A stretch of DNA of 64,000 nucleotides from Gammaproteobacteria bacterium (GCA_965115835.1 OZ220471.1:1486157-1550156), one strand, 5' to 3'. Shown: positions 9,582 to 40,758, numbered from the stretch's first letter. Notes: a model not told the origin generated them from the sequence alone. Program-made: numbers and translations.

Positions 9582-9656
9582 GCTCCCTTCGTCTAGGGGT
9601 CAGGACGCCAGGCTCTCAATCTGGAAACAGGGGTTCGATTCCCCTAGGGAGCGCCA
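9582..9656 (+). tRNA. tRNA-Glu (anticodon CUC)
   Basis: Hand-folded cloverleaf, 75 nt: acceptor GCTCCCT/AGGGAGC, D arm GTCT-AGGGGTCA-GGAC, anticodon arm CCAGG-CTCTCAA-TCTGG (anticodon CTC), variable AAAC, T arm AGGGG-TTCGATT-CCCCT, discriminator G, encoded CCA. Confidence 0.85.
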
Positions 9657-25140: not shown

Positions 25141-25851
25141 TCAATACGGAAGCGGGCGGCCCGGAGATTCGATGAAGGAACCGCTGTCATCCCTATTCAG
25201 GCGCGCAATCAGGGTCCTCATGTCGGCGATGGCGGGCTCCAGCTCCAGCTTGGCGGACTTGCCGCCCATTCGGGTCCTGACCCAGCCCGGGCAAACGCTG
25301 ACCACCGTGATTCCGCGCGAGGCCAGATCGCCGGAGAGCAGCCGCGTGACCATGTTCAGCGCCGCCTTGCTGGTGCGGTAGGCGTACAGGTCGCGCCGCG
25401 CCCGGCTGATGGAGCCTTCGCTGGAGGACAGGGCCACGAATTTGCGCTGACCGCTGCGCGCGACCTGTTCGACAAAGGCTTCCGCGCATTTCAGCGGCGC
25501 CAGCGTGTTGATGGTGAGAACCTGCCGGACGATGCCGTAGTCGATGTGGCCGAACGACTGCCGGAGATCGGACTCCGCGCCCGGTTTCGGACCGAACAGC
25601 CCCGCGTTGCTCAGGAACACATCGATCGCCTCGCTGTCAAGTTCCGCGGCCAGCGCCGAGATGGCGTCGAAGTCCGACACGTCCAGGAGAAAGGCCTCGA
25701 CATTTTCCTGCCTGGCCAGATCCAGCAATTCTCCGGACTCCGCGGGATTTCGGTAGGTGGACAGCACGCGCCAGCCATCGGCGGCGTACTGCCGGACGAA
25801 CTCCAGCCCCAGGCCCCGGTTGGCGCCGGTAATCATTACGGTCGAAGGCAT
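25141..25851 (-). CDS. SDR-family oxidoreductase
   Basis: VMITGANRGLGLE (TGxxxGxG), NAG, catalytic YRTSK. 236 aa from ATG 25851. Confidence 0.85.
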   Translation of the reverse strand: MPSTVMITGANRGLGLEFVRQYAADGWRVLSTYRNPAESGELLDLARQENVEAFLLDVSDFDAISALAAELDSEAIDVFLSNAGLFGPKPGAESDLRQSFGHIDYGIVRQVLTINTLAPLKCAEAFVEQVARSGQRKFVALSSSEGSISRARRDLYAYRTSKAALNMVTRLLSGDLASRGITVVSVCPGWVRTRMGGKSAKLELEPAIADMRTLIARLNRDDSGSFIESPGRPLPY

Positions 25852-26252
25852 GGCATGGCCCCGGCTGCGATCCCGGGGACGAATCGTACAACGGCAGGAC
25901 CGGATCCCCTGCCCCGGGACGCAAGACCCCGCATCCTGTGCACTGCCGACCCGAACATCTCGCCGATGGCGCCTTGCGCGATTGCCGCCGCGCAGACCTC
26001 TGCTGCCATCGCGCGGGATATGGAGCTGAGCCGCCTTCGTTATCGGACGAAACAAAGCACTATGATGTATCGACCACCATGCCGGGTTCTCAAGCCCCGA
26101 AAGTCAGCGGCGCCGGAAGGGAAGCGAACTCATCTCCGGGTCAACATCAGGAATTCCAAGCGGTTGGATGGCGCCAAGCCGGAAGGCGATGTGGAGGTGC
26201 TGCTTGGGCGCTTGAGCCCGGACGGCTGTGTCGCTGCAGCTGACTGGAACAG

Positions 26253-27818
26253 TCAGCGTCCCTTTCTGGCCATTCTTCTGAGCCATTCCGACTCATCAAT
26301 CGCCACGCGACTCAGCGTTGTTCCAAAAGTCTGGGCGATCCTCTGTGCGTACTCGGCCTTGAGTTCACCCCGCCACTTGTATTGATTTTCACAAGTATCC
26401 GTAAACTCGAAGTCGCCATCGGATTCCCGCTTTGCTGCGATTACGGCACCGCTGCCCGTCGATGGTTTGAATTTGCGGAGAACCCAACCATCTGGATCAC
26501 GTTCGATGCCCAATCGCTCGAATTTGTCATCAATTCTGGCGACAATCTGGTCCATTCCCTTCTTGGGTTCAACCAGCGGCAGGAAAAAGAACATTGTCTC
26601 TCCTTTCAATCTCACGCAATCACATCGAGGTCTCATGCAGATCAAATGCTGTTTGCCGCCAGCCTCGGACACCGTAACGACGGTACCCAGCCACAATGTC
26701 GGTGGCGGCGCACCATACACCGTTCGGAAACTCATGATCCAAGCCAACCGCTTGTCAAGGTCGCCGGCATTCTGACCGGAGAAGCCGGCGGAGAGACCTT
26801 CAAAGTTTTTATTTTTCAATGCACTCGCTGCAAAACCTTGGTTCGCCAACTCAATGGTCTTCTCCAGATCGAGATCCTGACCGCCGAACACGAAACTCTC
26901 GGTTCCTTGCCCCTTGCGTCGTATCCAATTCTCGACAGCCTTGGCGCTTGCGGGAGACGCTTCCGCAACAGCGTTGTCCATCAGGCCTCGAAGCTCTTCG
27001 GCCACATGGTTCACGATCTGCCGTTCCGCATCGTGCGGGTCGGATAGACATGCCCTGTGAGCAAGAAACGCCGGATCCAACTCCGCACTAAACCGGTCCA
27101 GTACCTTGTGCGCGCCTTCTCGCACTGCGGCCAACGAGGTGATTGCGATGCCGGGAAGCAGCCCCGCAGTCATTGAGGCGAAATCATCGACTAGCCGGCC
27201 GGGAAGATCCTCCTCCGCGACACTCCGATCCTTCAGTGATGCCGCCAGATTCACACCGGACTTTGCATAAAGGACAACCCGACCATGCCGGTATGAAATT
27301 TCCATTCCAGTCCCATTCCGCTTTGGCTCAAGTCCGCCATCTTTCAGCGCGTCCAAAACTTTTGCGCCGATATCCTCCAGCCGTGCCTCACCAGTGTAAA
27401 TCGCCACGAGACGGAGGGAATTACGATCTGCTTCTCCAGTCAGCAAATCCCAAATCAACTTCAGCGCGTACTGAGGCTTGCCATCCTTCAAAAGCCAGTC
27501 GAGGATCACGATGTCGGCCTGCCTCATCGTTTCCATTGCTGAATCCGTGGGACCGACCACACCGCAGATGACGCCAAGCGCTGAAAACGCATCCATGACG
27601 GAACCTGCGTTCAGGGTGTGTATCAAACTGCGATCAACTGCTCCCTCATTATCCCGGCTTGATGCCCGCATGCGCCGGCCCGGCGCCACCAACCCCGACT
27701 CTGGTCGATCACCCCCGACCAATCGCATGCGCGCCTCGTCGTCTACCACTACCGCCGTATGGAGAAAACGCTGCGCGAAGGCAACGCTGCCATATCTCGA
27801 TTCGCCCGCCAACGCCAT
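26253..27818 (-). CDS. Receiver (CheY-like) domain protein with an uncharacterised ~330-aa C-terminal domain
   Basis: ATG 27818 preceded by AGGGGAAAG. CheY-like landmarks in order: VVVDDE, ADIVILDW (putative phospho-Asp), LVAIYTGE, VVLYAKSG. I recognise no motif in the C-terminal part (CMRPRCDCVRL...FFFLPLVEP...). Confidence 0.6.
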   Translation of the reverse strand: MALAGESRYGSVAFAQRFLHTAVVVDDEARMRLVGGDRPESGLVAPGRRMRASSRDNEGAVDRSLIHTLNAGSVMDAFSALGVICGVVGPTDSAMETMRQADIVILDWLLKDGKPQYALKLIWDLLTGEADRNSLRLVAIYTGEARLEDIGAKVLDALKDGGLEPKRNGTGMEISYRHGRVVLYAKSGVNLAASLKDRSVAEEDLPGRLVDDFASMTAGLLPGIAITSLAAVREGAHKVLDRFSAELDPAFLAHRACLSDPHDAERQIVNHVAEELRGLMDNAVAEASPASAKAVENWIRRKGQGTESFVFGGQDLDLEKTIELANQGFAASALKNKNFEGLSAGFSGQNAGDLDKRLAWIMSFRTVYGAPPPTLWLGTVVTVSEAGGKQHLICMRPRCDCVRLKGETMFFFLPLVEPKKGMDQIVARIDDKFERLGIERDPDGWVLRKFKPSTGSGAVIAAKRESDGDFEFTDTCENQYKWRGELKAEYAQRIAQTFGTTLSRVAIDESEWLRRMARKGR

Positions 27819-27827
27819 CACTTTCCC

Positions 27828-30785
27828 CTATAGTTCTTTCACTGGCGCCACGCCGAATGTCGCGCCACCGTCGCCTTCGAGCAACTGAAGATCGAAGCCG
27901 ACCCGGCGCAGAGTTTCCCGTCCGATGTACAACCCCATCCCTCGGCCACCGGGCTTTCTGCTGAAGCCGAACTCGAAAATCGCCTCCCGGTCGCGGACAT
28001 CGACCCCCGGTCCGCTATCGGCGACGAGCAATGCGCCGCCGCGCTCATCAAGCTCGATAGTTCGTTCCAACTGGGGGTTCTGTTGCGAAAGCCAAAAGAT
28101 CGCGTTGTCCACCAAATTCACAAAGACGGGATAGAAGCTCGAGGGGAAGCCGATGATCCTGGCGTCGTCGAAGGCTCTTGTCGCCTTGAAGGACACGTCA
28201 TGGCGCGCCAAACGCGCGCGGAACAGCTCCTCCAGAAAGTCCCGAATCTCGGAACCACGGATTTCCACCGCCTTCCTGTAGAGTCGCCGCTGCAACGGCG
28301 TAAACAGCGTCAGATATCCGTCGAGGTGATCGAAGCTTGCTCGAATACTGTTGTACAGTTCGCCCAATCCCTCGTTCACATCGGCCCAGGCTTTCAGTTT
28401 TCGCAAGCCAGTGCGAATCGACCGTATCGTGCCGGAGAATTCATGGTTGATGATCTCGATAGCCATTCCCAACTGTGCCAACTGCGCATCAGCCTCGGCT
28501 TCCTCCTCCAGCAAAAGATTGCGTTGCTCGATCGCCATCAATTGTTCGGCTGTCGAGCTCTCACCTGTCACGTCCACCGCCTGAAGCTGCTCCAACACCG
28601 AGCGTAACAATGCTCCCTGTTTTTCGGCGACTTTCAGTACCCTGGCCTCCAACGCGCTTCTGGTTTCGACGAGACACTCGTCGGTCATTCCCGCCAGATC
28701 GTTCCGTTGAAATTCGCTTAGCACCTCCCGCAGTTCCGACTCGGCAATCTTGAGGGACCGTCCCGCTACCTCTCGCGCTTTCGAGGCGACCTTGTCCGCT
28801 TCCGCCCTCACTGCCCGACCTGATTCGCCCGTCGTCTTTCGCGCCTCGCGCACAAGGCCATCCAGTGCCGCTTCTGCCCTGACGCGACGGTCTAGCGACA
28901 ACCTTGCCTTCCGAACCTCCTCACCAATCATGTCTTCCATAAGCTCGCGAGACGGCCGGAACACATTCTCCTGAAGCAAGGCGAACTCCGCGTTGTAGAC
29001 GCTCCAGTCGCGAAGCGTGGCTTTGCTGAGTCCGATTCGTGGACGCGCTATACGGTAACGCGCCACCAGACTCCTGATATCTGCTTGCGCCTGACGTTCA
29101 AGAACAAGAATTTTTTGCGCCGCCAACTGGCTGTCCGCCATGCTGCATACCGCTTGCAGCTCCTTCTCGACACGTCCCGCCAAAGCCAAGGCTTCATTCT
29201 GAGGTTCGTTGTTCTTGAGCTTATCGAAAAAACAGTCCAAACTCTCCTTGAATATTTTCTTCCTCTCCGCGACCCGTTTTTGTCGTTGTTTCCTGGCCTC
29301 ATCCTCTCTCGAAAGCTCGGCCTTTCGCTGATCGAATTTGTCAGCGTGCATCCCTTTGACCCGGAAAAAGTCCGCTGCCATCTGAAAAAAGAAGTTCTGG
29401 AGAATCGAACGGAACTGACGGTACGCCTTGTTCTGTTGGAATCCCTCTCGTCCTGCTTTTTCCAACAGATCCCCATTATTGTCCGCGTCGATCCACACGG
29501 CCCCAAACATTTTCCTGTGTGAGAAATAGTAGTAGGAAGCGCTCTTTGTTCGCCTGAATTCGATGTCCAGCCAATCGTAGTCGGTGTTGCCATAAGGCAG
29601 TACGCGAACCCCGTTCCGGTATATGTAGAGTCCTCCCAACCGCTCGGTCTTGCGTGCCAATGTCGCATACTCTTCGTCAGGAATCGTCGAGTATTTCTCC
29701 TCGCCCTCGAAAGCGGCGAAGTCGATTGAGAACGGACCACAGCGTGTGGGCACGCCACGCCCGCCGCCCCATGGGATAACGTGATCGGCTGTCGTCTCAC
29801 CATAGATTGAAACCTCTCCCTTGAACTGACCGAATTCGTCGAAGTCACCGCGCACCCGGTGATCCGCATCCCCGAACTCTTCCGGGGTGAAGAACTCATC
29901 CTCGGCAATCAGCTCTTTGGTCAACTCGTCCGTCTTGTGATCGCGAAACGCAGTGTGGATCACAGGCTGCGAGTCTGGTGTCATGGTGTTACTGAATCCA
30001 AGCAACGCTTTCATCAGGGGCGGTGCTTTTTTCAACGCAGCCGCCTTGCTCGCTGCGGGGTCTCCGTCGATATCATCCGCCAGTAACGGCGATGCGGGCT
30101 TGATGATGAAGTGTGTTCCGCTGCTGCTCGCACCAGCGAGTGACGGCTTTTCAAGGTAGGAGTCGATGTCTTGCGGATCAATATCGAATTGATCCAGTTC
30201 TGCCAGAAGCTTCTTCAACAATCGCCTCTCGACATCGCGGCCGACAATTTTGGCGCTCGCACGAAATTCTTCCACCATGTCAGCTACATCCTGTGCCGAA
30301 GGCAAAGAGCCCGCTGTAAATGACCGCAGGGGTATTTCGACGTCTTCCAGGTCGATGCCGGGCCATTCGAATACGCCCCAGTTCAGGAACGCTGCGGTGA
30401 GGTCGGAGGCTCCGTCATCAGCCTTCGGGCGAGTGAGAACCAGAAGCTGCGGGCCGATAGTCGCAATCGCAAGCCTTCCGATCCCCTTCTCTCCCAGCAT
30501 CGGCCGCGGTTCCTTATCTGGATATTGCGGTGGCCGTTGATTCGGATCGAACTTGCTTTCCGTGCCGATCGTCAGCCATCGCGTCACGAAGTCGTCCCGG
30601 CTCATCCCGACGCCATCGTCTCTGAGTACAAACAGGCCATCCGAGCGGTAATAGTCGATCTCGACGCGATCAGCATAGGCGTCGTGCGCATTCTTGAACA
30701 GTTCGCTGATCGCGGTCGGAATGCCGGCAATCTGTTGCCGACCGAGCATGTCTAGTGTGCGAGCGCGCGTCTTGAAGGTTGCCAT
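27828..30785 (-). CDS. Double-GHKL protein: N-terminal MORC/Hsp90-like ATPase + coiled coil + C-terminal histidine-kinase core (DHp + CA)
   Basis: N-terminal Bergerat motifs ISELFKNAHDA, RDDGVGM, GEKGIGRLA. A ~350-aa helical Glu/Arg/Ala-rich middle. H-box-like AIEIINHEFSGTIRSIR, then a second ATPase (FVNLVDNAIFW, VADSGPGV, GGRGMGLYI). The ATG at 30785 shares 1 nt with the dcm stop. Confidence 0.75.
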   Translation of the reverse strand: MATFKTRARTLDMLGRQQIAGIPTAISELFKNAHDAYADRVEIDYYRSDGLFVLRDDGVGMSRDDFVTRWLTIGTESKFDPNQRPPQYPDKEPRPMLGEKGIGRLAIATIGPQLLVLTRPKADDGASDLTAAFLNWGVFEWPGIDLEDVEIPLRSFTAGSLPSAQDVADMVEEFRASAKIVGRDVERRLLKKLLAELDQFDIDPQDIDSYLEKPSLAGASSSGTHFIIKPASPLLADDIDGDPAASKAAALKKAPPLMKALLGFSNTMTPDSQPVIHTAFRDHKTDELTKELIAEDEFFTPEEFGDADHRVRGDFDEFGQFKGEVSIYGETTADHVIPWGGGRGVPTRCGPFSIDFAAFEGEEKYSTIPDEEYATLARKTERLGGLYIYRNGVRVLPYGNTDYDWLDIEFRRTKSASYYYFSHRKMFGAVWIDADNNGDLLEKAGREGFQQNKAYRQFRSILQNFFFQMAADFFRVKGMHADKFDQRKAELSREDEARKQRQKRVAERKKIFKESLDCFFDKLKNNEPQNEALALAGRVEKELQAVCSMADSQLAAQKILVLERQAQADIRSLVARYRIARPRIGLSKATLRDWSVYNAEFALLQENVFRPSRELMEDMIGEEVRKARLSLDRRVRAEAALDGLVREARKTTGESGRAVRAEADKVASKAREVAGRSLKIAESELREVLSEFQRNDLAGMTDECLVETRSALEARVLKVAEKQGALLRSVLEQLQAVDVTGESSTAEQLMAIEQRNLLLEEEAEADAQLAQLGMAIEIINHEFSGTIRSIRTGLRKLKAWADVNEGLGELYNSIRASFDHLDGYLTLFTPLQRRLYRKAVEIRGSEIRDFLEELFRARLARHDVSFKATRAFDDARIIGFPSSFYPVFVNLVDNAIFWLSQQNPQLERTIELDERGGALLVADSGPGVDVRDREAIFEFGFSRKPGGRGMGLYIGRETLRRVGFDLQLLEGDGGATFGVAPVKEL

Positions 30786-31867
30786 CAGGATAGTTTTCCC
30801 ACATCCCTCAGATGTTCGATGAATTGATGACCGATGAGTTTTGCCAAACGAACCGGTACCGCATTCCCGATTTGTCTTGCCATCGACGCCATGCTTCCCT
30901 CAAAAACGAAGTCTTCGGGAAATGTTTGCAAGCAAGCCGCCTCCCGGATACTGATGGCCCTATCCTGCTCCGGATGGCCGAAGCGTCCGTTCGAGTAGCT
31001 CGTGCATCGCGTGGTAAGCCCTGATGCGGGCGCGTCCCACGACATCCGGCCATAGACATCGCTATAGCCCGAAAACCCCTTGTGGCAATCGAGCATCAGG
31101 CGTTGCGGCCAATCCCGATTGCCACCACCTTCAGGCGTTGCCTCTATACGCTCCAGATTGCGCGCGGAAAGATGCGCTGCCCTGTGGTTGGGCACTTCCT
31201 GATGCTCTTCCCCCGCCCGAATCGGCGGAAGATGAGCGATCCAGTCCCCGACCGTGGAGTATTCCTCGTTGGCCGTTCCTGGCCCGTGCGTCTCATCAGG
31301 CAAGCGAACCACACCATGAAGGCTCCCTACCAGGACGAGCCGACGGCGGCTTTGAGGTATCCCGTATTTGGCAAGCAATACAGGTCGGTAGTCCACCTTG
31401 TAACCCGCTTCGTCCAGTCGCCGCAGGAAGTCGCCGAAAGGCTGGCTGTCTGCGGACAACTGCTGTAGTCCCGGGACATTCTCCACAAACACAAGATCGG
31501 GCCGACAACCTTCTACCAAACGAGCAAAATGGACAAGCAGAGGGACACGATCATCCTGGCTGGGCTCCGGCCGTGTCGTATTCTGTTTGGTGAAGGGCTG
31601 ACACGGCGCACAGCCGCTGAAAAGCACCGGATTTGATCGCTCGGTGTCTACCCGGGATCGGACCATCTCGACATTCACCTTGCGGATATCCGCAAACTCG
31701 AAATGCGCGTCGGGGAAGTTGGCCTCGAAGCTTGCCCGAGCGCCCATATCGTAGTCCAGCGCGAACATGATCTTCATCCCGGCGGCCCGGAAACCGCAAC
31801 TCGCGCCGCCACATCCGGCAAAGAAGTCGTATACCTCCACAGTCGCCAAGTCGCTACGGTGGGTCAT
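30785..31867 (-). CDS. dcm: DNA (cytosine-5)-methyltransferase
   Basis: Motif I DFFAGCGGAS, motif IV GCAPCQPF, motif VI FVENVPG, QSRRRL, C-terminal GNAVPV. The ATG at 31867 overlaps the vsr stop (ATGA). Confidence 0.9.
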   Translation of the reverse strand: MTHRSDLATVEVYDFFAGCGGASCGFRAAGMKIMFALDYDMGARASFEANFPDAHFEFADIRKVNVEMVRSRVDTERSNPVLFSGCAPCQPFTKQNTTRPEPSQDDRVPLLVHFARLVEGCRPDLVFVENVPGLQQLSADSQPFGDFLRRLDEAGYKVDYRPVLLAKYGIPQSRRRLVLVGSLHGVVRLPDETHGPGTANEEYSTVGDWIAHLPPIRAGEEHQEVPNHRAAHLSARNLERIEATPEGGGNRDWPQRLMLDCHKGFSGYSDVYGRMSWDAPASGLTTRCTSYSNGRFGHPEQDRAISIREAACLQTFPEDFVFEGSMASMARQIGNAVPVRLAKLIGHQFIEHLRDVGKLS

Positions 31868-32442
31868 GTTTGCGCACCGGTATGAGGCATGAAGGCACAT
31901 CCGGTCCGTGACCCCGCGTCCGACCTTTCCGGCACCGACAGGGAACGTCCCTGCGAGTCGGATACCGACATCGAGACTTGGTTTTTGGCGGTTGTGGCCA
32001 ACGGGATGTTCTTCGGCTCATCAGTAGCCCTTCTGCGGGTGACCGATGCGGCCAGCTTGTGCGCCACAAGCGTCTGGTCCTTGGTTTCGCACTGCCAGAT
32101 GACGAGGGTCCGCCAGCCATGTGCCCTCAGGGCCGCTTCCTGGCGGGCGTCCCGGGCGACATTGGCAGCGAACTTCTCCGTCCAGAAGGCGATTCGGGAC
32201 TTGGGGGTGGATGCGTACCGGCAGCCTTCATGCCGATGCCAGAAGCAACCGTGCACGAACACAGCCAGCCGATGTTGCGGGAACACCAGATCCGGTCTAC
32301 CCGGAAGATCGGTGCGATGCAGGCGGAAACGCAGGCCCATCCTGTGGGCTATTCGACGAACCGCCAGTTCAGGTGTGGTATTGCGGCTGCGTATGCCCGC
32401 CATCAGTTCGCTTCGCCGCCTGCTGTCCACGATGTCGGTCAT
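31864..32442 (-). CDS. vsr: Very short patch repair endonuclease
   Basis: RRSELMAGIRSRNTTPEL, LPGRPDLVFPQHRLAVFVHGCFWHRHEGC, FWTEKF, VIWQCE. About 40 extra C-terminal residues. The ATG at 32442 overlaps the hsdS stop (ATGA). Confidence 0.9.
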   Translation of the reverse strand: MTDIVDSRRRSELMAGIRSRNTTPELAVRRIAHRMGLRFRLHRTDLPGRPDLVFPQHRLAVFVHGCFWHRHEGCRYASTPKSRIAFWTEKFAANVARDARQEAALRAHGWRTLVIWQCETKDQTLVAHKLAASVTRRRATDEPKNIPLATTAKNQVSMSVSDSQGRSLSVPERSDAGSRTGCAFMPHTGAQT

Positions 32443-33584
32443 GCCGTGTCCTCCAGGAGGCGGAACATGAGGGAGGCATTCAGCGTTGCAGCAATACGAC
32501 AGGCAAGCTCCATACGCTTGACTGTGGCTTGCGCTGCCTTGGCAAGTGCTGCGAATCGAGCCTGTTCATCAGGTGGAGGATGCGGCACTGGCAATAACAT
32601 CAGCGCTTTCATGTCGGTTCGCGGCATTCGGGAACCGGTCACAGACGCCATGACATGTTCAACAGTTTCCTTTTGCCGAAGCAATTGCGCGACGAAGTCG
32701 CGATTGATTCCCTCTCGGGGGAGAAGTGGAATCAACTCGGTAGAGCATCTGCCAGCGAATTCGGGAGTAGCGACTTTGTTCAGATAGGGCCGAAGCTTCG
32801 CATAGAGAACATGACGCTTGTCGAATCGAAATGTTGCGCTTCTTTGATTGCCTGTGCGTGAATCGTTATCGAGGTTGATCGCACCTGTGTGCGGCTCGAC
32901 ATTTTCGACGCCCACAAACGGAAGTCGCGATAAAGCCGGGTTGTTCGGATCCAGTCCTTGACGATCCACCACGCAAATTTCGCGGAGTGCACAAACTGGC
33001 CACCCCATCGGGTTTGCGGCAGGATCGCCGAACATCTTCACAAACAGCGCGGGCATGAATTCCCGCATCAACTCCCGCGCCTGCGCCCGCAGCCGTTCGA
33101 TCTTCGCCGCTCGGTTCAGGATGCCGGCAATCCGCCGCTGCTCGTCGAGCGAAGGAAGGGGGACCGGCAGCAACATCAGCGCTTTCATGTCGGTTCGCGG
33201 CATTCGAGAACCGGTCACAGACGCCATGACATACTCAACGGTCTGTTTTCGCCGAAGCAGATGGGCAACGAACTCGCGATCCACACCATCCCGAGGAAGA
33301 AGTGGAACCAGTTCGGTCGAGCACTTGCCCGCAAAATCAGGGGTTACGACCTTGTTCAGATACGGTCGGAGCTTTGAATAGAGAATATGGCGCTTGTCAA
33401 ACTGGAAAGTTGTGCTCCTTTGACTCCCGACACGTGAGCCGTTGACGAAATTAAGGGCACCGTTTTGGGACTCGACATTCTCGACGCCCACGTAGCGAAG
33501 CCCCGCCGCGGCAGAGTCGTCCGGATCAAGACCTTGGCGATCCATCTCACAGAGATCACCCAGCTTTACGACCGGGAAGCTCAT
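32439..33584 (-). CDS. hsdS: Type I restriction-modification specificity subunit with two near-duplicate target-recognition domains
   Basis: Two repeats of the pattern VGVENVE...FDKRH.LY.KLRPYLNKV.TP.FAG.CSTEL.PLLPR...MASVTGSRMPRTDMKALMLLPVP, separated by the conserved helical spacer LDEQRRIAGIL. Confidence 0.9.
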   Translation of the reverse strand: MSFPVVKLGDLCEMDRQGLDPDDSAAAGLRYVGVENVESQNGALNFVNGSRVGSQRSTTFQFDKRHILYSKLRPYLNKVVTPDFAGKCSTELVPLLPRDGVDREFVAHLLRRKQTVEYVMASVTGSRMPRTDMKALMLLPVPLPSLDEQRRIAGILNRAAKIERLRAQARELMREFMPALFVKMFGDPAANPMGWPVCALREICVVDRQGLDPNNPALSRLPFVGVENVEPHTGAINLDNDSRTGNQRSATFRFDKRHVLYAKLRPYLNKVATPEFAGRCSTELIPLLPREGINRDFVAQLLRQKETVEHVMASVTGSRMPRTDMKALMLLPVPHPPPDEQARFAALAKAAQATVKRMELACRIAATLNASLMFRLLEDTA

Positions 33585-33771
33585 TCCCCCACCGCCTCCA
33601 TTACGGCCTCGGCGAGGTCGTCGATCTCGGCGAGGATTTGCGTCTCGATGCCTCGCAGGTCCTTGAGGATGTCCAGCGGTTCGCGGCGCTCTACCTTCGC
33701 GCGGCTCAATGGCCGGTGGCGGTTGGCGCTGAGGTTGAAGTCGGCGGCGCGGATGGCGTCGGCCCCGGCGA
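33581..33771 (-). pseudogene. Orphan 3' fragment of hsdM (last ~63 codons), still ATGA-coupled to hsdS
   Basis: Encodes ADAIRAADFNLSANRHRPLSRAKVERREPLDILKDLRGIETQILAEIDDLAEAV..., nearly identical to the C-terminus of the full hsdM at 35752-37416. The DNA repeat 33603-33771 vs 35807-35975 has 5 mismatches in 169 bp by my alignment. Confidence 0.8.
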
Positions 33772-33852
33772 CCTCATCAAGCAGCAGAAATCGTTCATGC
33801 ACGGCCACTCTGTCTTGGCGCCTGTCCCTTCGGGCGCTTATGACAGGCATCC

Positions 33853-34386
33853 TCACGCCGCTGTCGCCGCCGCATGTTCCCAAAGGCCGAGATCGCGCAG
33901 CAGGGCAACCGCTTTTTCGATGCGCTCGTCCGTCGCCTTGAGCGGCTTGCGCGCCTTCGTTTCCTCGACCGGGTCGATCTCTCCCTTGCCGTAGTAATCC
34001 CACTCATCACGCAGGAAAACCATGGTTGCAGCCAACTCCAGAACGATATCCGACGCCCCCTTCAGCTTGTCCAGAAAAGCACTGGCCTGGCAAGCCGAAA
34101 GCGCGCCAAGAGGTGGCGGCGGCTCCTCTTTCGACTTGAAAATTGCATAGGGCACTCCGTGGCGTCCTGGTTTTTCTTCCATGGTGATTCGTTTTTCCGC
34201 CAGCGCATCGGTTAATCCGTCAACCAGATCGAAGCAATACGGCCCATAGTGGTGATAGATGAATCGCAGGCCGAAATTTGCGCCACAGCGGTCCAAGAGA
34301 TAGGCCTGCTTCTGCAGCCGGGTTCGACCGATCAGTTCGCCGCCGTTCAGCGCGACCAAGCCAGTTACGATTTCTTCCACATTCAT
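33853..34386 (-). CDS. Panacea/DUF4065 (SocA-like antitoxin domain)-like protein, 177 aa
   Basis: GRTRLQKQAYLLD...FIYHHYGPYCFDLVDGL resembles the KLQKLLY...YGP core of DUF4065 as I remember it. The ATG at 34386 overlaps the HD gene stop (ATGA). Family assignment is tentative. Confidence 0.45.
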   Translation of the reverse strand: MNVEEIVTGLVALNGGELIGRTRLQKQAYLLDRCGANFGLRFIYHHYGPYCFDLVDGLTDALAEKRITMEEKPGRHGVPYAIFKSKEEPPPPLGALSACQASAFLDKLKGASDIVLELAATMVFLRDEWDYYGKGEIDPVEETKARKPLKATDERIEKAVALLRDLGLWEHAAATAA

Positions 34387-35738
34387 GTTGCCACCTCCTT
34401 CAGGATTTTTTGCAGCTCCTTGGTGCGAGCCGCATCGGGCGCGTAGACGCGCTGGATGCGTTTGCCATGCCGAAGCGTTTGCACGACATCGGATTCACCA
34501 ACGATATCGGTTGGCTCGCCTGCATCGTCTCGCGTCTTCACCAGAACTTTTTTCAGAGCCGATGTGTCGTCGAAGTTATAGGCCTTGTATGACGCAAACG
34601 GCGCGTCGTCGAAAATAACCTCGTCCTTCCATCCCCAAGGCTTCTCATTCAGACACCGCCTGAACCGGAGGAACAGATTGCCATTCCACTCATCACAGAC
34701 TCCGATATCGACGCACTTGTAGAGTACGCGATCCCGCAACCGTCTCGCCAATCCCGAAATCCGCTTGTCCGAAAAATCGGAATAAATCGACAAGGCGGCC
34801 CAGACCGACGCATCGTCGAGAGCAAGATAGGAACCGAGCGTTGGCGTGTCGGATTTCAGATAGCACAGAACCGGTTCTCGGCTCGCCACTTCCCTCCCTA
34901 CTGTATCCGACGCAATGACACCCATGAGGGTCTCCAGCATCTTTTCGGCGGCCCTTGTAGTCTTGTGCATATAAACCATCCGGTAAAGACGCGACCGGGC
35001 TTCCAGATACTCCTCGGCTACCTGAAAGCCCTTTGGACCGAGATAGAAGCATGGCGCCTTGATCGGATCCGTATTTCCGATGGTTACCTTCCCGACCTCA
35101 AGGCAATCAAGCAACCAGTCAAGATCGATATGTCCGAACTGCACACCGGTCATCAGTCGGTCCCGCTGCATGTAGTCGAGCCGGTCGGCGTCAAACTGGC
35201 TCGACACGATAGCGCTGTAAATGTCCTTCTGGCTGTCTTCGGTTAGAAGTGCGCCGATCTGGTTTGGCAAGTCCTCGTCCGCCTCTCGGAGCACTTGGTT
35301 GACTCTGGTGTCGCTCCTTACGATCTCGGTACTCCATTCTTCGTGTCGTCGCTGCTGCCGACCCATAATCGTGGCGGACTCAAACACATGACTGAAGGGT
35401 CCGTGCCCGATATCGTGCAGTAGGGCCGCCAAAAGCGCGACACGCTCGCGTTCCGGATCGTGAGCATGACCCAACCGCCGTGCGATGACGTCAGCCAACC
35501 GCCGCGCCATGTGATACACGCCAACGCTGTGGGCAAACCGGCTATGGGTCGCACCGGGAAAAACGAGATCGGAGAAGCCCAACTGACGGATGCGGCGCAG
35601 TCGCTGAAACTCGGGCGCATTCATCAGGCTCCAGGCGATCCGGTCTGTTTTGTTCCGATGAACGTTGGCACTGCCCCCGAACACAATCAGTCCATGAATC
35701 GGGTCGCGTATCCGCTGCGTTTGTTTGCTGTTCCCCAT
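34383..35738 (-). CDS. SAMHD1-like HD-domain dNTP triphosphohydrolase
   Basis: IRDPIHGLI, EFQRLRRIRQLG, THSRFAHSVGVYH, ALLHDIGHGPFSH, FDADRLDYMQRD, YMHKT. ATG 35738, 13 nt after the hsdM stop. Confidence 0.8.
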   Translation of the reverse strand: MGNSKQTQRIRDPIHGLIVFGGSANVHRNKTDRIAWSLMNAPEFQRLRRIRQLGFSDLVFPGATHSRFAHSVGVYHMARRLADVIARRLGHAHDPERERVALLAALLHDIGHGPFSHVFESATIMGRQQRRHEEWSTEIVRSDTRVNQVLREADEDLPNQIGALLTEDSQKDIYSAIVSSQFDADRLDYMQRDRLMTGVQFGHIDLDWLLDCLEVGKVTIGNTDPIKAPCFYLGPKGFQVAEEYLEARSRLYRMVYMHKTTRAAEKMLETLMGVIASDTVGREVASREPVLCYLKSDTPTLGSYLALDDASVWAALSIYSDFSDKRISGLARRLRDRVLYKCVDIGVCDEWNGNLFLRFRRCLNEKPWGWKDEVIFDDAPFASYKAYNFDDTSALKKVLVKTRDDAGEPTDIVGESDVVQTLRHGKRIQRVYAPDAARTKELQKILKEVAT

Positions 35739-35751
35739 CACCCCAGCCCGT

Positions 35752-37416
35752 TCAGCAGTCCGAAATGCGAGGAGCCAAGGCCGGACTGGATGAAGTCTCT
35801 TCCCGCACGGCCTCGGCGAGGGCGTCGATCTCGCCGAGGATTTGCGTCTCGATGCCTCGCAGGTCCTTGAGGATGTCCAGCGGTTCGCGGTGCTCTACCT
35901 TCGCGCGGCTCAATGGCCGGTGGCGGTTGGCGCTCAGGTTGAAGTCGGCGGCGCGGATGGCGTCGGCCTCGGCGAACCACCAGTTCGCGGTCCAGTTCTC
36001 GTTTGGATCGCGGCCTTGCCATTCCGCCCACCGTGCGTCGCGGTCACGGAACGCCTCGATCAGGCCAGGCAGGTCGTCTTCGTCAATGGGCGTGTCGTGG
36101 TTGGCGTCAAGCTTGTAGCCGTCGTTCTCGGCATGCAGGAACATCACCCGCTCCGTCGCCCCGCCCTTGCGGAACGCCAGCACCGAGGTCTTGACACCGG
36201 AATAGGGATTGAACACGCCGCCCGGCAGCGACAGCACCGCCTCCACCCGGTTGTTCTCGATCAAACGGCGGCGCAGTTCCTTGTGCGCCCCGGTGGAGCC
36301 GAACAACACGCCTTCCGGCGCCACCACGCCGCAGCGCCCGTCTTCCCGAAGGTGGTTCAGCATGTATTGCAGGAACAAAAGTTCGGTTTGCGCCGTGCGC
36401 CCAACCTTCACTTCCTCTACGATGCGGTCGCGGTCCAACCGCCCGGAGAACGGCGGATTGGCAAGAATCACGTCGAACCCGTCCGGCGGCAGGTCGAGCT
36501 CCGCCTTCGCCGCGCGGTCGAGCGAGCGGGTGAGCGCGTCGCGGCGCAGGATGCGCACCTTGTCCAGCCCGCGCAGCGTCAGGTTCATGGTGGCGAGGCG
36601 AACCATCTGCGGATCCACATCGGCGCCGTGAAAAGTCCCCTCCTGCAACTGCCGAACCGCATCACGCCCCAGCGTGTCGCCGAGGCCGCGCCGCACGGCC
36701 TTGCCGTCGGCCTCCACTTCCTCGATCCCGGCGGACGAGGAGTTCGCCAGACGGATATGGTCCCATGCGCCCACCAGGAAGCCCGCCGTGCCGGCCGCCG
36801 GGTCGTAAATCGTCTCGCCGATCCGCGGATCGACCAACCGCACCAAGGCGCGGATCACGTGGCGCGGCGTACGAAACTGGCCGAGTTCGCCCGCCTGACG
36901 AATCTGCCGCAGCACATGCTCGAACAGGTCGCCCTTGGTGTCGGCGTCTACCCGATCGAGACGCAGGTCGTTCAACTGACTGACGACCTGGGTGAGCACC
37001 GTCGGCTCGTCGATCACCAGCCGGGCGCCGTCCATGAAGTCGGTGACGCCGTTCGTCGCAAGCTCGGCATGGAACGCAAAGACCTCTTCGCGCACCCAAG
37101 CGACCAGACGCTCGCCGTTCAGCGCCTGCGCCCAGGACGACCAGCGCAAGAGTTCGCGCGGCACACTCTTCGCATCGGACGCATGGGCGTTGCGCGGGTC
37201 GCGCAGCGCCCATTGGCCCTCGTAGGCGCTGGCGTACGGAACGGCGCCAGGCTTTTGCGCCGCCCGTGCCCGGGCCGCGTCCGCCGCTTCGTGCATGTAG
37301 AAGTAGATCAGGAAACTCAACTGCTCGGCGTTCTGGGCCGGGTTCGGGTAGCCGCCTCCAAACAGATAATCGCGGATGCGGTCGATGCCGCGACGGAGCT
37401 CCGGGGTCATGGGCAT
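35752..37416 (-). CDS. hsdM: Type I restriction-modification DNA methyltransferase subunit (N6-adenine)
   Basis: GQFRTPRHV, motif I IYDPAAGTAGF, motif IV ILANPPF, LFLQYML. ATG 37416 with GGAAGGA upstream, 4 nt after the hsdR stop. Confidence 0.9.
   Translation of the reverse strand: MPMTPELRRGIDRIRDYLFGGGYPNPAQNAEQLSFLIYFYMHEAADAARARAAQKPGAVPYASAYEGQWALRDPRNAHASDAKSVPRELLRWSSWAQALNGERLVAWVREEVFAFHAELATNGVTDFMDGARLVIDEPTVLTQVVSQLNDLRLDRVDADTKGDLFEHVLRQIRQAGELGQFRTPRHVIRALVRLVDPRIGETIYDPAAGTAGFLVGAWDHIRLANSSSAGIEEVEADGKAVRRGLGDTLGRDAVRQLQEGTFHGADVDPQMVRLATMNLTLRGLDKVRILRRDALTRSLDRAAKAELDLPPDGFDVILANPPFSGRLDRDRIVEEVKVGRTAQTELLFLQYMLNHLREDGRCGVVAPEGVLFGSTGAHKELRRRLIENNRVEAVLSLPGGVFNPYSGVKTSVLAFRKGGATERVMFLHAENDGYKLDANHDTPIDEDDLPGLIEAFRDRDARWAEWQGRDPNENWTANWWFAEADAIRAADFNLSANRHRPLSRAKVEHREPLDILKDLRGIETQILGEIDALAEAVREETSSSPALAPRISDC
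35807..35975. repeat. 169-bp direct repeat (copy 2) of the hsdM 3' end; copy 1 is 33603-33771
   Basis: Aligned by eye base by base: 164 of 169 identical. The two copies bracket the HD/Panacea-like cassette. Confidence 0.85.
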
Positions 37417-37420
37417 GCGC

Positions 37421-39568
37421 TCATCCTTCCCCGGCGCGAGTGCCTTCGTCCGCGCCACTGCCAGCCCGCCGGGAGCCGAACACCGCAGCGTTGATTCCAG
37501 CAATCAGCTTGCCCAGCGATTCCTCGCCGCCGAACACGCGCCGCGCCTGATCGTAGCCCCCGAGCGTGGAGAACGGGTGTTCATCAAGGGTCCATGCGCC
37601 GATGCCGTCCATGCTCGGCGCGTCAGCCCGCACCCGGTTACCGATCAGCCCGGCCCAGCGCGCCTGTTCCGCGTTGAAATCGCCGTGCTCTTCCCGCCAC
37701 GACTCGAAACGCACACCGACCTCTGCCGCACGCGCCTCGTGCTCTGGCGTACGAACGATGCGGCCATTCTCGTCGAGCGTCAGCCACTCGCGGCTCGCCG
37801 GGTCGATATGGTCGTCCACATCCAGCGTCAGAAGCCCGCGGGGCTTGGCCGAGCCGGGGCGACGGTCGGTGTCGTGGACCGGACGGCCAGCAATATCCTC
37901 CTCTTCGTCTCCGTGAAAGTCCGTCACGCCCACAAAATCGAAGATCGTGAACCCGGTCTTGCCGATATGGTCCGCCTTGCGCGTACCGCGCCCGCGCATC
38001 TGCCGGTAGAGGATCGCGCTTTGCGTGAACCGCGCCATGACGAGGCTCACGACCTCCGGGCAGTCGAACCCGGTGTCCAGCATGTTCACGCTAACGAGAA
38101 TCTTCGGGTAGTCCTCTTCCTTGAAGCGCTTGATGATGGCGCTCGCATCGGGCGCCGGACCGCCGCCGACATCGCTCACCACGAAGTCTGCATAGCGCGT
38201 CGTTGGATGCGGCTTCCGATCCGCGTAGTGCGCGTCGAACATCTCCGCCAGAGTCTCGGCATGGCGCCGGGTCACCGCAAATACGAGGGTCTTGCCTGAC
38301 TTCGGCCAGCGGCGGACGCCGTCTCGGCCCATGAAACCCTTCTCGTGCGCATCGCGGAACTCACGCACCAGGGCGCGGTTGCGCTCCGGGATGGTGAACT
38401 TGCGCTCCAGCCCCTGCGGGTCCACCGTAATCGGGTCCGAATCGGCGAACAGCGCCTCGAACCCTTCACGCGTCTCCCGATCCATCGCGCTCCAGTCGAG
38501 TTCGTCGCGGCGAACCTCGAACCCGTCTTCGGCGGCGGTCTTCACCGTCATCGCCTTGTAGATGCGGTAGGGCACGAGATAGCCTTCCTCGATGGCCCGG
38601 GGCAGCGTGTAGCGGAAGGTGGGTTCGTCGAGCCCGAAGAAGCGCAGCGTATCGCGCACAAACCGCCCCTCTTCCGTTTTGGGAGATGTGCCAGCCTCTG
38701 CCGTGCAAGGCGTTGCCGTAAGGCCGAGCTGGATGGAATCGAAGTGCCGCAACACGCCGCTGTACTGGCCGTAGATCGAGCGGTGGCACTCGTCCGTAAT
38801 GACCAGATCGAAATAACCCGGCGAGAGGGTGCGGAACTCGGCGATCATGGTCTGGAGGGTCGCAATCGTGATGCGCTTGGCCCGGTCGAACTGCCGGCCG
38901 GGCCGCAGCACATGGCAGGGATAGTCCCGCAGATGGTCGGTGAAGGCGTCCTCGGCCTGCCGCGCCAGGGCGATCCGGTCGACCAGAAACAGCACGCGGG
39001 TGACAATCCCCGCCTCGAACAGCCGCTTGATGAAGGCTGCCGCCGTGCGGGTCTTGCCGGTTCCCGTCGCCATCTCGACCAGGAGCTTGCGCCGCCCGAG
39101 CGAGATCTCGGCGGACAGCGCCTCGACGCATTCGATCTGATAGTCGCGGTCGACGATCCTGGAGTCGATGGTGACCGCCGACAGATCGCGGCAACTCCGG
39201 CGCGCGGCGATGCGCCGCTCCAGGTCGTCCTGAGCGTAGAAGCCCGCGATCTTCCGCGCGTGGGAGTCGGTCTTGCGGTCGAGGAACCGCACTTCCTCGC
39301 CGTTCGAAAGAAACATGAACGGCACACCGAGTTGTTCGGCGTAGTGCTTGCCCTGATCCTGCGCCGCGATGGGATCGGCGCCCGCGCGCTTGGCTTCCAG
39401 CGCCGCCATGGGCCGGCCCTGCCGGTTGCAGAGCACATAGTCGGCCTGCGTCCCGTCGGGCAGCGCGTACTCGAACAGGACGCTCGAACCGTCGGTGAGG
39501 TCCCAGCCTGCATCCTTGAGCAGCGCATCAATCTTCACTCGCGCGAAGGCTTCCGTCGTGCCACTCAT
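37421..39568 (-). CDS. hsdR: Type I restriction enzyme R subunit (EcoEI-like, short form)
   Basis: N-terminal nuclease core (ADYVL...ALEAKR), helicase motifs MATGTGKT, DECH (ITDECHRS), LGLTATP, QMRGRGTR. The C-terminal region is EcoEI_R_C-like. Confidence 0.9.
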   Translation of the reverse strand: MSGTTEAFARVKIDALLKDAGWDLTDGSSVLFEYALPDGTQADYVLCNRQGRPMAALEAKRAGADPIAAQDQGKHYAEQLGVPFMFLSNGEEVRFLDRKTDSHARKIAGFYAQDDLERRIAARRSCRDLSAVTIDSRIVDRDYQIECVEALSAEISLGRRKLLVEMATGTGKTRTAAAFIKRLFEAGIVTRVLFLVDRIALARQAEDAFTDHLRDYPCHVLRPGRQFDRAKRITIATLQTMIAEFRTLSPGYFDLVITDECHRSIYGQYSGVLRHFDSIQLGLTATPCTAEAGTSPKTEEGRFVRDTLRFFGLDEPTFRYTLPRAIEEGYLVPYRIYKAMTVKTAAEDGFEVRRDELDWSAMDRETREGFEALFADSDPITVDPQGLERKFTIPERNRALVREFRDAHEKGFMGRDGVRRWPKSGKTLVFAVTRRHAETLAEMFDAHYADRKPHPTTRYADFVVSDVGGGPAPDASAIIKRFKEEDYPKILVSVNMLDTGFDCPEVVSLVMARFTQSAILYRQMRGRGTRKADHIGKTGFTIFDFVGVTDFHGDEEEDIAGRPVHDTDRRPGSAKPRGLLTLDVDDHIDPASREWLTLDENGRIVRTPEHEARAAEVGVRFESWREEHGDFNAEQARWAGLIGNRVRADAPSMDGIGAWTLDEHPFSTLGGYDQARRVFGGEESLGKLIAGINAAVFGSRRAGSGADEGTRAGEG

Positions 39569-39629
39569 GCCGCCATCCAGTTTCGAGGAACGGCCGGGGC
39601 AAAGCGGCGACGAAAGCAGGCCCTGCCGC

Positions 39630-39973
39630 TCATGTCGCCGTCCAAGGATCGGCGAGCTTCATGCCGATGTCCTCGAAGTCCCGAACATTACGCGCCGCCA
39701 CCTTCATGCCGCAGGACCGGGCGGCAGCCACAATCTGGCTGTCCGCCGGGGCGCGGCGCCGCGATATCCGCGTGTCGCAGCGCTATCGAAGGAAAGGATA
39801 TGATTTCCGAAGGCATCATGCAGGATGATGCGCACTTCTTCCTCCATCAACCGGTGATGCTCGGTGGCGCGCAGGCGCAGACACACCTTCGCGTCATGGT
39901 CGAGATTGCGGATAGTGTGATGCTCGCCATACCCTTGTCGACAGGCCCATTCTATCGGCTCCAGCAGTGCCAT
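39630..39973 (-). pseudogene. Degraded vapB(fitA-like RHH)-vapC(PIN) toxin-antitoxin remnant
   Basis: The RHH antitoxin core TIRNLDHDAKVCLRLRATEHHRLMEEEVRIILHDAFG runs directly into ILSFDSAA. After a frameshift comes ...DSQIVAAARSCGMKVAARNVRDFEDIGMKLADPWTAT*, a PIN VapC C-terminus. The PIN N-terminal half is missing. Confidence 0.55.
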
Positions 39974-40174
39974 CAAGAGACTGGCGCAGAGCACCCCCGA
40001 TACTGCAACGCCGGGCCTTCGCACTCCCGGAGGGCAAACCGAACCCGGCTGTTCCCGTGAGCGCGACCGGTTGGAATCGATCTCTTCGCTTTGAATCCGG
40101 GGAATCGCAATCAATGTCTCGGTGGGAAAGGCTGCGCTTTGCAACTCGTGAAGCTCCGGCTACAGTACGGCGCG

Positions 40175-40567
40175 ATGGTCGAGTTCCTGCAACCGCCCGG
40201 CTGGCCGCGACCCTCTGGTTACGCCAATGGCGTAGCGGCGCGCGGCAAGACGGTCTATGCAGCCGGGCAAGTGGGCTGGGACGCCGCACAGCGCTTCCCT
40301 CCCGGCCTGCCCGAGCAGGTCGAGCAGGCGCTGCGGAACGTGCTGGCGGTAATTTCGGAAGCCGGCGCCGCGCCACAGGATCTGGTTCGCCTCACCTGGT
40401 TCGTCACCGACCGGCAGGCTTACATCGACCAACAGCGCGAAGTGGGCGCGGCTTACCGGCGCGTTGTAGGCCGGCACTTTCCGGCCATGAGTCTGGTCCA
40501 GGTGGCCGGTCTGGCAGAACCGCAAGCGCTGGTGGAGATCGAGGCCACCGCCGTCATTCCGGATTGA
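40175..40567 (+). CDS. RidA/YjgF-family (enamine/imine deaminase-like) protein
   Basis: GYANGVAARGKTVYAAGQVG...NVLAVISEAGAAPQDLVRLTWFV...PAMSLVQVAGLAEPQALVEIEATAV. Confidence 0.8.
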   Translation: MVEFLQPPGWPRPSGYANGVAARGKTVYAAGQVGWDAAQRFPPGLPEQVEQALRNVLAVISEAGAAPQDLVRLTWFVTDRQAYIDQQREVGAAYRRVVGRHFPAMSLVQVAGLAEPQALVEIEATAVIPD

Positions 40568-40576
40568 CCCGCACCA

Positions 40577-40697
40577 CAGCAATTCCCGCCAACGATGCAG
40601 AGTCGTTCGTTCAGGGCCGGATACCCAGGCTTGTGACCATTCAGGCGTTGGATCGGAGCTGATTTTCGAGCATTGTCGCGCTTGGCGGGAATTGCTG
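40577..40697 (+). mobile_element. MITE copy B (121 bp)
   Basis: 16-bp perfect terminal inverted repeat CAGCAATTCCCGCCAA / TTGGCGGGAATTGCTG. Flanked by a perfect 9-bp direct repeat CCCGCACCA (40568-40576 and 40698-40706). Confidence 0.85.
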
Positions 40698-40758
40698 CCC
40701 GCACCAGACACATCACGGCGATGCGGTGGCCGACACGCGCAAACGAGCCGCCGCGCGG

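Follow-up and report, generated by a model that had tools for sequence, protein, structure and literature searches.

A probably acquired and immobilised integrative defence island, with a dcm-kinase-receiver module, in a gammaproteobacterial genome

How does a tightly packed run of defence genes, all on one strand, come to interrupt the short spacer between an SDR gene and ridA, and was it put together in that genome or received whole? The question is raised by a 64,000-nucleotide stretch of DNA from a Gammaproteobacteria bacterium (GCA_965115835.1 OZ220471.1:1486157-1550156), which as a whole is called the window here and from whose first letter all positions are counted. An initial annotation had marked positions 25852-40174 as a ten-gene defence island lacking any integrase. 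The segment 25918-40159 is, in our judgement, very probably a ~14.2-kb horizontally acquired integrative defence island that has become immobilised: a backbone array of type I restriction-modification (R-M), cytosine methylation and signalling genes, the remnants of an integrase gene and of a toxin-antitoxin pair at its edges, and an inserted cassette encoding a putative deoxynucleoside triphosphate triphosphohydrolase (dNTPase). The boundaries, accessory status, synteny across phyla, domain-level gene identities, remnants and internal repeat, on which this account is built, are matters of observation. Islands of this type are already known, and the present one is of the ordinary kind, a well-documented example and not a new class; its most interesting parts are the putative phosphorelay module, itself known through bioinformatics, and the dockable dNTPase cassette.

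The insertion junctions lie at ~25917/25918 and 40156-40160, inside the ~85 bp that separate the divergent SDR and ridA genes, and the remaining host spacer is complete. The SDR gene was found in all 21 same-genus genomes (78-83% identity, with homology ending at window position ~25851-25898), and in 19 of these the site is empty, ridA following SDR after a spacer of ~45-130 bp. The kinase gene of the island is present in three of the 22 genomes of the genus, each time at a different place (the copies of the two other congeners are 75-77% identical), and is absent from the 19 other families of the order that were examined. The tree of kinase proteins mixes phyla: the window copy groups with Pseudomonadales and Binatia copies (SH-aLRT 97), away from that of the congener G009. 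The island is accessory, not core, as the initial annotation had supposed, and the empty site that it proposed to seek between SDR and ridA does exist.

Both edges carry pieces of genes that are intact in other copies. At the left, where ~400 bp of non-coding DNA and no integrase had been noted, there is an open frame for the tail of an int1-type tyrosine integrase (Table 1). It aligns to residues 364-457 of a 476-aa integrase from a Binatia locus (L096; tblastn, E 7e-9) and, at the nucleotide level, to the 3' end of an intact paralogue in the same genome (G000:C1:895519-895682; blastn, 72.6% identity over 168 nt, E 2.5e-20), and it occupies the same position and orientation as int1 in L031, L047 and L073. 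At the right, the vapB-vapC remnant seen earlier is borne out by the homology of a ribbon-helix-helix (RHH) core and a PIN tail, aligning by tblastn to residues 5-42 of VapB and 98-141 of VapC from L096; the distance between these homology blocks is 450 bp in L031 and ~69 bp here, such that ~380 bp are missing relative to intact copies. A complete VapBC/FitAB toxin-antitoxin system was rejected, given that VapB ~5-42 and VapC 98-141 alone can be aligned. The cargo genes are all full-length relative to their homologs, and the two remnants therefore indicate that the mobility genes and the addiction module were lost while the cargo was kept; in this one sense, the description of the island as domesticated holds.

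The provenance of the remnants becomes clear from the distribution of the array in other bacteria. The kinase protein has more than 4,000 homologs, the best 120 of which are 75-84% identical and of the same length; 71 kinase loci from named genomes were surveyed, 66 of them informative for gene order. The trio dcm-kinase-receiver is kept in 62 of the 66, with dcm directly upstream of the kinase gene, and spans Acidobacteriota, Binatota, Alpha- and Gammaproteobacteria, Spirochaetota, Latescibacterota, Rhodothermota, Cyanobacteriota, Bacteroidota, Chloroflexota and Saccharimonadota; in 17 of the loci, the trio is directly preceded by hsdR and/or hsdM. Over the full array, vapBC-hsdR-hsdM-hsdS-vsr-dcm-kinase-receiver, nucleotide identity with metagenome-assembled genomes (MAGs) of several phyla is collinear at 72-87%, from window position 39939 down to 26232, and the gene order of the island is common to bacteria of at least seven named phyla. 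The Binatia copy in L096 is intact: vapB (81 aa) and vapC (140 aa) are followed by hsdR, hsdM, hsdS, vsr, dcm, kinase and receiver genes with overlapping junctions, and then by two tyrosine integrases on the opposite strand (476 and 380 aa). Intact tandem integrases likewise come after the array in L031, L047 and L073, whereas L097 has the same nine genes and no integrases. No convincing att repeats were found around the intact L096 element, and a plasmid collection held only distant homologs of the kinase and of the HD-domain protein described below. Several of the locus records carry names that presumably point to sponge or coral microbiomes.

The intact array has the form of tyrosine-integrase defence islands in general, with tandem Arm-DNA-bind_3/Phage_integrase genes at one end, a toxin-antitoxin pair at the other and defence cargo between; the window copy departs from it in that its integrases are cut to a stub and that no att site or tRNA target is recognisable. 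A second island of this genome, outside the window (G000:C1:893291-~904000; L122 9205-19900), has the same integrase pair with a different defence-type cargo. Its int2-int1 genes, at 893291-895635, are intact and share 85% and 84% identity with those beside the Binatia array, and the low-G+C DNA (0.51-0.59) that follows encodes an SDH-type ClpP-like protease, a 1355-aa Eco57I-like enzyme and a UvrD-like helicase. More fragments of both integrase genes, with 76-83% identity over 66-119 residues, are found at G000:C1:663790-664337 (L123), possibly what is left of a third element. In two unrelated hosts, the array is bordered by EamA transporter genes (L097 364-2400, where a 294-aa copy and a 131-aa fragment are separated by a PIN_3/MazE pair, and L096 17372-18259), which could reflect a preference for EamA as a target or could be chance.

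Certain observations weigh against an acquired integrative element, and these concern the island ends and its composition. No direct or inverted repeat of 11 nt or more connects the ends, so that the end-repeat search suggested by the initial annotation came back empty, and neither an att repeat nor a target duplication was found; 'CCGG' is the sole sequence common to both junction sides. The nearest and only tRNA in the 64-kb window is at 9582, as expected from the earlier remark that none flanks the island, and there is no tRNA target near it. Compositionally, the segment 25905-35806 has a G+C content of 0.576 (4th percentile of 2-kb windows; genome 0.648), and the G+C content at third codon positions (GC3) is 0.60-0.72 in seven genes, in line with the lower G+C already suspected in the left half. 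However, the hsdR-hsdM end (35807-40158, G+C 0.657; GC3 0.83-0.84) is host-like by both measures, and the tetranucleotide distance of the island is modest, at just the ~89th percentile; composition alone would thus not flag the right third as foreign, and the compositional check proposed for the island gives a divided answer.

Other comparisons at the ends were also negative: neither the leftmost 38 bp nor the rightmost ~225 bp of the island has similarity to other copies of the element, and the host spacer has none to the surroundings of the second integrase pair in this genome. The 10-mer GCAGGACCGG was rejected as an end repeat, as it sits within the vapC remnant and not at the boundary. 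The same SDR/ridA spacer holds a different, 2.1-kb insert in the congener G004 (L022 2207-4295), encoding a 145-aa PIN protein and a 337-aa SDH-type protease. It was rejected as a relative of the island, with which it shares nothing; with the second island of this genome, it has in common only a distant SDH-type protease family (27% identity). The congener G009 lacks ridA at the site and has instead ~1.3 kb with an Old-Yellow-Enzyme-like fragment (L021 2212-3512).

Table 1. Features of the island and its flanks (window coordinates)
Feature	Position	Strand	Basis or remark
SDR gene	25141-25851	-	left flank
Inserted DNA	25918-40159	n/a	host spacer recognisable to ~25917 and again from ~40156-40160 (spacer alignment with ten congeners; junction motifs located)
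Tyrosine integrase stub (int1-type), tail after catalytic Tyr	25938-26243	+	open 101-codon frame; aligned part 25956-26231 (276 bp)
Receiver protein, 522 aa	26253-27821	-	Response_reg_2 (PF19192, 93 bits), helical domain, beta-rich C-terminal domain
Kinase, soluble paraMORC-type GHKL protein fused to histidine-kinase core, 985 aa	27828-30785	-	Pfam domains
dcm, C5 cytosine DNA methyltransferase	30785-31867	-	PF00145, 178 bits; TIGR00675, 142 bits; open frame up to 31900
vsr, very-short-patch repair endonuclease	31864-32442	-	PF03852; TIGR00632; 139 bits
hsdS, two similar target-recognition domains	32439-33584	-	PADLOC Specificity_I, E 9e-71
Orphan hsdM 3' tail, 191 nt	33581-33771	-	repeat copy B at 33603-33771; keeps original overlap with hsdS start
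81-nt spacer, right junction of cassette	33772-33852	-	no similarity to matching L098 junction
Partner protein, 177 aa, DarG C-terminal-half-like	33853-34386	-	PADLOC DarG positions 177-326 of 329, E 5e-8
HD-domain enzyme, EF1143/SAMHD1 dNTP triphosphohydrolase type, 452 aa	34383-35741	-	PF01966 and PF19276
hsdM, N6-adenine methyltransferase	35752-37416	-	PF02384, 182 bits; PADLOC MTase_I, E 4e-124
hsdR, EcoAI-like restriction/translocase subunit, 715 aa	37421-39568	-	ResIII, HSDR_N, Helicase_C, EcoEI_R_C
Decayed vapBC	39630-39930	-	FitA-like RHH core 39803-39916 (PF22513, E 4e-11); last 44 PIN-toxin codons 39630-39761
Sigma-70-like promoter match	39949-39976	-	single match in 25500-40700, just upstream of vapB
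ridA	40175-40567	+	right flank

Within the island, every intact gene, hsdR (39568) being the first and the receiver gene (26253) the last, is encoded on the minus strand, as first described; there are nine such genes and not ten, accompanied by three remnants (the hsdM tail, vapB'C' and the integrase stub). Their order is hsdR, hsdM, the HD gene, the 177-aa gene, hsdS, vsr, dcm, kinase and receiver, and the junctions overlap or are 1-10 nt apart, except at 33581-33852: the gaps are 4 nt for hsdR/hsdM (with an ATG at 37416), 10 nt for hsdM/HD and 6 nt for kinase/receiver, and the overlaps are 4 nt for HD/177-aa, 4 nt for hsdS/vsr and 1 nt for dcm/kinase. The vsr/dcm overlap is 4 nt with the dcm start at 31867, which is suggested by 360-aa homologs, and 37 nt from a start at 31900. 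Packing of this kind had been taken to suggest one long operon, and the intact L096 copy has the same overlaps from vapC through the kinase gene. The single promoter-like match within 25500-40700 compares with 3.8 expected from shuffled sequence and is not significant by itself; together, the tight packing, the overlaps in L096 and this lone site are consistent with one long transcript, but do not prove it. Taken overall, the layout, scar, lower G+C and vapBC remnant reported in the initial annotation stand, whereas its gene count, its missing integrase and its non-coding left edge do not.

The type I R-M system comprises co-located HsdM, HsdS and HsdR, the last of which combines a nuclease N-terminus and an SF2 motor, with Pfam and PADLOC scores well over their thresholds. 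Against NF046051 (the EcoAI/FtnUII HsdR family), HsdR scores 251 bits, under the equivalog cut-off of 550, and is related to that family without being an equivalog. The two halves of hsdS, 32577-32968 and 33153-33544, are 76% identical over 392 nt, which suggests that the recognition sequence is nearly symmetrical.

The arrangement hsdM-HD-177-aa-hsdS sets this island apart, as none of the 71 kinase loci has the HD cassette. The HD protein shows homology to EF1143 (PDB code: 2o6i; E 5e-44, residues 33-339) and to SAMHD1 (E ~1e-19 to 1e-17). It resembles these enzymes and the bacterial dGTPase defence genes, whose anti-phage role was reportedly described by Tal et al. in 2022, in its HD-domain homology and its defence context, and differs from all of them in always being paired with a partner of ~177 aa through overlapping stop and start codons, in the manner of a toxin-antitoxin system. 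A dNTPase assignment is tempered by the low scores against curated dGTPase models: 33.6 bits for TIGR01353, with a cut-off of 152, and an E-value of 9e-7 over just 85 of the 395 positions for PADLOC dGTPase. The predicted structure of the 177-aa protein (pLDDT 87) has as its best Foldseek match 7yk3_B, a 188-residue chain of the DarTG complex (E 4e-4, TM 0.55-0.60) that we take to be the DarG C-terminal domain; by sequence, it has no matches in the PDB. Thus, the protein is like the C-terminal half of DarG in sequence and in predicted fold, and the enzyme-then-partner order is like that of darT-darG. Nevertheless, with no macrodomain, no DarT and an HD enzyme as neighbour, this is not a DarTG system, and that identity was rejected, as was a Panacea (DUF4065) antitoxin, because seven homologs gave no Pfam match even at E 10. 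We propose that the 177-aa protein acts as an inhibitor of the HD enzyme.

The cassette is bordered by the hsdM-fragment scar that the initial annotation had recognised, 272 bp in total (33581-33852), and its division into an orphan tail and a spacer is as that reading had it. Copy A of the repeat (hsdM 35807-35975) and copy B are identical at 164 of 169 nt (97%). The end of the orphan tail matches the hsdM/hsdS junction of L031 and L073, and both repeat copies are of the island's own type. In the window hsdM, copy A continues into a new tail of 18 residues that comes from the cassette; the same tail is present in L098, the left junction thus being shared. The closest HD homologs, 70-73% identical, lie in the order hsdR-hsdM-HD-(177-182 aa)-hsdS in L098, L099 and L100, the first of which has its own hsdM-tail repeat (137 bp, 83% identity). 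Homologs with 62-67% identity form a free-standing two-gene pair among metabolic genes (L118/L119 and L121), and in L102 the pair is alone, no type I gene being detected by tblastn within 6 kb on either side. A metagenome scan for the HD protein gave two loci only, and among 400 sampled genomes of the same class the HD proteins are just 35-45% identical. We infer that the HD and 177-aa genes are a toxin-antitoxin-like pair that docks in type I loci by homologous recombination at the hsdM tail, a route to which the 169-bp repeat points.

Type I R-M clusters with an embedded defence gene include the prr locus, with PrrC. The two-gene module TgvAB is located in the VPI-2 type I cluster of Vibrio cholerae and also outside such clusters (PMC11411939). 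The present cassette is similar to TgvAB, in that a two-gene module interrupts a type I cluster and occurs elsewhere too; it differs from both precedents in its cargo, an HD dNTPase and a DarG-C-terminal-like protein in place of a GmrSD-type enzyme or an anticodon nuclease, and in that the insertion is marked by the hsdM-tail duplication.

At the other end of the array, the kinase and receiver genes form the least conventional part of the cargo. Three Pfam domains score above their gathering thresholds in the kinase (HATPase_c_3, residues 24-125; HEF_HK, 771-837; HATPase_c, 884-977), the GHKL motifs, with residues E29, N32 and D35, the HEF motif and the N, G1 and G2 boxes are intact in its translation, and its C-terminal part matches solved histidine kinases. 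A match to NF050001 (BbrUII/HgiDII type II restriction enzymes) is confined to the GHKL N-terminus (66.9 bits, positions 8-119 of 659), and identity with those enzymes was rejected, 550 bits over the full length being required. Across 46 homologs of the receiver protein, there is no variation at D27, D108 and K187 and almost none at D28 and T143; the residues of a phosphorelay are therefore conserved on both sides, namely, the HEF motif in the kinase and Asp/Asp, Asp, Thr and Lys in the receiver. The AlphaFold model of the receiver protein (pLDDT 84) has its best Foldseek matches to MazF (E 3.5e-3, TM 0.64 normalised to target) and to receiver/flavodoxin folds, and the beta-rich C-terminal domain, a candidate effector at residues ~370-522, possibly has a MazF-like fold, although the score is weak and the aligned region was not reported. 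Pfam searches of the 46 proteins (E 1) returned Response_reg_2 only, the C-terminal part matching no family in any of them, and a profile of the receiver protein had no matches in the PDB.

With all of the domains, an adjacent Response_reg_2 gene and an upstream C5-methylase, the pair belongs to the HEF_HK/Response_reg_2 module, which Bellieny-Rabelo, Pretorius & Moleleki (2021) described bioinformatically in 644 regions with 91.6% linkage (PMC8011034). These authors found C5-methylases, Vsr and R-M genes to be enriched near the module, and speculate that it signals to control R-M systems (PMC8011034). The window agrees with their description in having HATPase_c_3...HEF_HK and HATPase_c domains next to a Response_reg_2 gene, with a C5-methylase immediately upstream, Vsr close by and type I R-M genes in the neighbourhood. 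Whereas they treat the neighbourhood statistically, here vapBC-to-receiver with the tandem integrases is one collinear unit, 72-87% identical across phyla; moreover, Vsr is upstream of dcm in this clade and most often downstream of the receiver gene in theirs. Our literature search found no experimental study of the module or of any close homolog, a further point against a firm functional assignment.

The principal alternative for the function of the pair follows from that speculation: the kinase and receiver would regulate the expression or activity of the neighbouring R-M genes and would not be an effector arm. It accords with the authors' own proposal, with residues that make the pair a bona fide phosphorelay and with the weak fold assignment for the receiver C-terminus. 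However, Pfam found no DNA-binding output domain in the 46 receiver proteins, the N-terminal GHKL domain of the kinase resembles BbrUII/HgiDII restriction enzymes, and in most loci the dcm-kinase-receiver trio has no recognisable nuclease neighbour, such that the pair itself would need to supply any restriction or toxic activity. A regulatory role is therefore unlikely in our estimation, albeit a serious contender, and an effector role is favoured over a purely regulatory one.

A precedent for an effector role might be Detocs, reported as a defensive two-component system (Rousset et al., 2023). The same logic would apply to the pair: a cytoplasmic kinase senses infection, and the phosphorylated receiver domain activates a fused effector. 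In contrast to Detocs, there is no separate buffering receiver gene here, sensing falls to a paraMORC GHKL module and there is a link to a Dcm methylase. PADLOC gave no Detocs match for the kinase or receiver, and just a REase_II N-terminus, although the presence of Detocs models in this release was not confirmed. Two variations were seen elsewhere. Beside the HD-cassette type I locus of L098 (11656-13865), adjacent opposite-strand genes encode HATPase_c_3 (362 aa) and HATPase_c (374 aa) proteins, possibly related to the kinase protein in split form; and in L050 (10950-12699) and L063 (10211-12342), the kinase and receiver genes are separated or interrupted by ~1.4-1.7 kb of extra DNA, possibly an insertion sequence.

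As to the origin of the island, the history first put forward was that of an old, domesticated or recombination-assembled island, without an integrase and fused in this lineage from separate R-M, dNTPase, dcm/vsr and kinase/receiver units. The G+C step inside the island, the hsdM scar and the absence of any intact integrase, transposase or tRNA all lend it some plausibility. Yet the step is present in all 13 other full-array loci, with hsdR and hsdM ~4-17 points above the kinase and receiver genes whatever the G+C of the flanks; it therefore belongs to the array itself, does not indicate that the island was assembled in this genome, and was rejected as proof of local fusion. The same fusion and the same step thus recur in 13-17 loci of other phyla, an integrase stub remains here where intact integrases follow the array elsewhere, and the HD cassette is the sole additional event, its arrangement likewise recurring elsewhere. 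We consider assembly in this lineage improbable; what survives of the proposal is the HD cassette as a recombination event. The array instead appears to have been assembled elsewhere and to have arrived in this genome ready-made, because the fusion recurs in 17 of the 66 loci, in several phyla, and the G+C step in every host examined. More generally, a G+C step within an island need not imply local assembly.

A second concern is that of an assembly or binning artefact, in which a foreign segment was misjoined into this genome. The genome is a single-contig MAG, and close relatives of the island exist in co-occurring bacteria of other phyla; but both junctions fall inside one ~85-bp spacer that is otherwise complete, no junction repeat is able to mislead an assembler, and the GC3 of hsdR and hsdM matches that of the host, making an artefact very improbable. 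Least credible of all is a block ancestral to the genus and lost by its other members, which has nothing in its favour except the host-like G+C of hsdR and hsdM, and which would require ~19 precise and independent deletions, each restoring an intact spacer, besides being at odds with the different locations and 75-77% identity of the kinase genes in the two other kinase-bearing congeners and with a kinase tree incongruent with taxonomy.

Returning to the acquired array, a history and mechanism can be proposed. The array would have inserted cleanly into the ~85-bp SDR/ridA spacer, after which its integrases would have been deleted to the 276-bp stub and vapBC would have lost ~380 bp; the portable cassette of HD dNTPase and DarG-C-terminal-like protein would have entered the hsdM/hsdS junction, probably by homologous recombination, leaving the 169-bp hsdM-tail duplication. 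Three defence layers would then be expressed in one or a few transcripts starting at the vapB promoter. In the first, type I restriction would act on DNA lacking the N6-methyladenine mark. In the second, the dNTPase would be kept inactive by its partner protein and, released on infection, would deplete deoxynucleoside triphosphates. In the third, Dcm would place 5-methylcytosine on the cell's own DNA, Vsr would repair the T:G mismatches derived from its deamination, and the paraMORC module would sense the state of DNA or nucleotides and autophosphorylate the His of the HEF motif; the phosphate would pass to Asp108 of the receiver, activating its C-terminal domain, possibly of MazF-like fold.

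Taken jointly, these suggestions amount to a bolder claim, which we advance tentatively and which falls well short of an even chance: that array and integrases constitute a co-adapted, multi-layer immune element moving among at least seven named phyla, in which Dcm marks self and a phosphorelay from paraMORC through the HEF His to Asp108 switches a toxic MazF-fold domain, and that hsdM|hsdS is a recombinational docking site for two-gene modules. If this were true, a two-component phosphorelay would gate a restriction or abortive-infection system that is linked to DNA methylation; and if the kinase and receiver were a phospho-gated effector, they would represent a new signalling logic for methylation-based immunity. 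Independently of function, the known dcm-kinase-receiver module is seen to travel between distant phyla inside a fixed nine-gene array, integrase-ended in some copies, which gives experimenters a defined unit for cloning, and the dNTPase/partner cassette is documented both alone and docked at hsdM|hsdS of one type I R-M family.

Finally, a small element lies just outside the island. Between ridA and tsaB, which in the congeners are separated by merely ~12 bp, the window contains a ~122-bp element (40577-40698) resembling a miniature inverted-repeat transposable element, with ~50 further copies in the genome at 90-97% identity.

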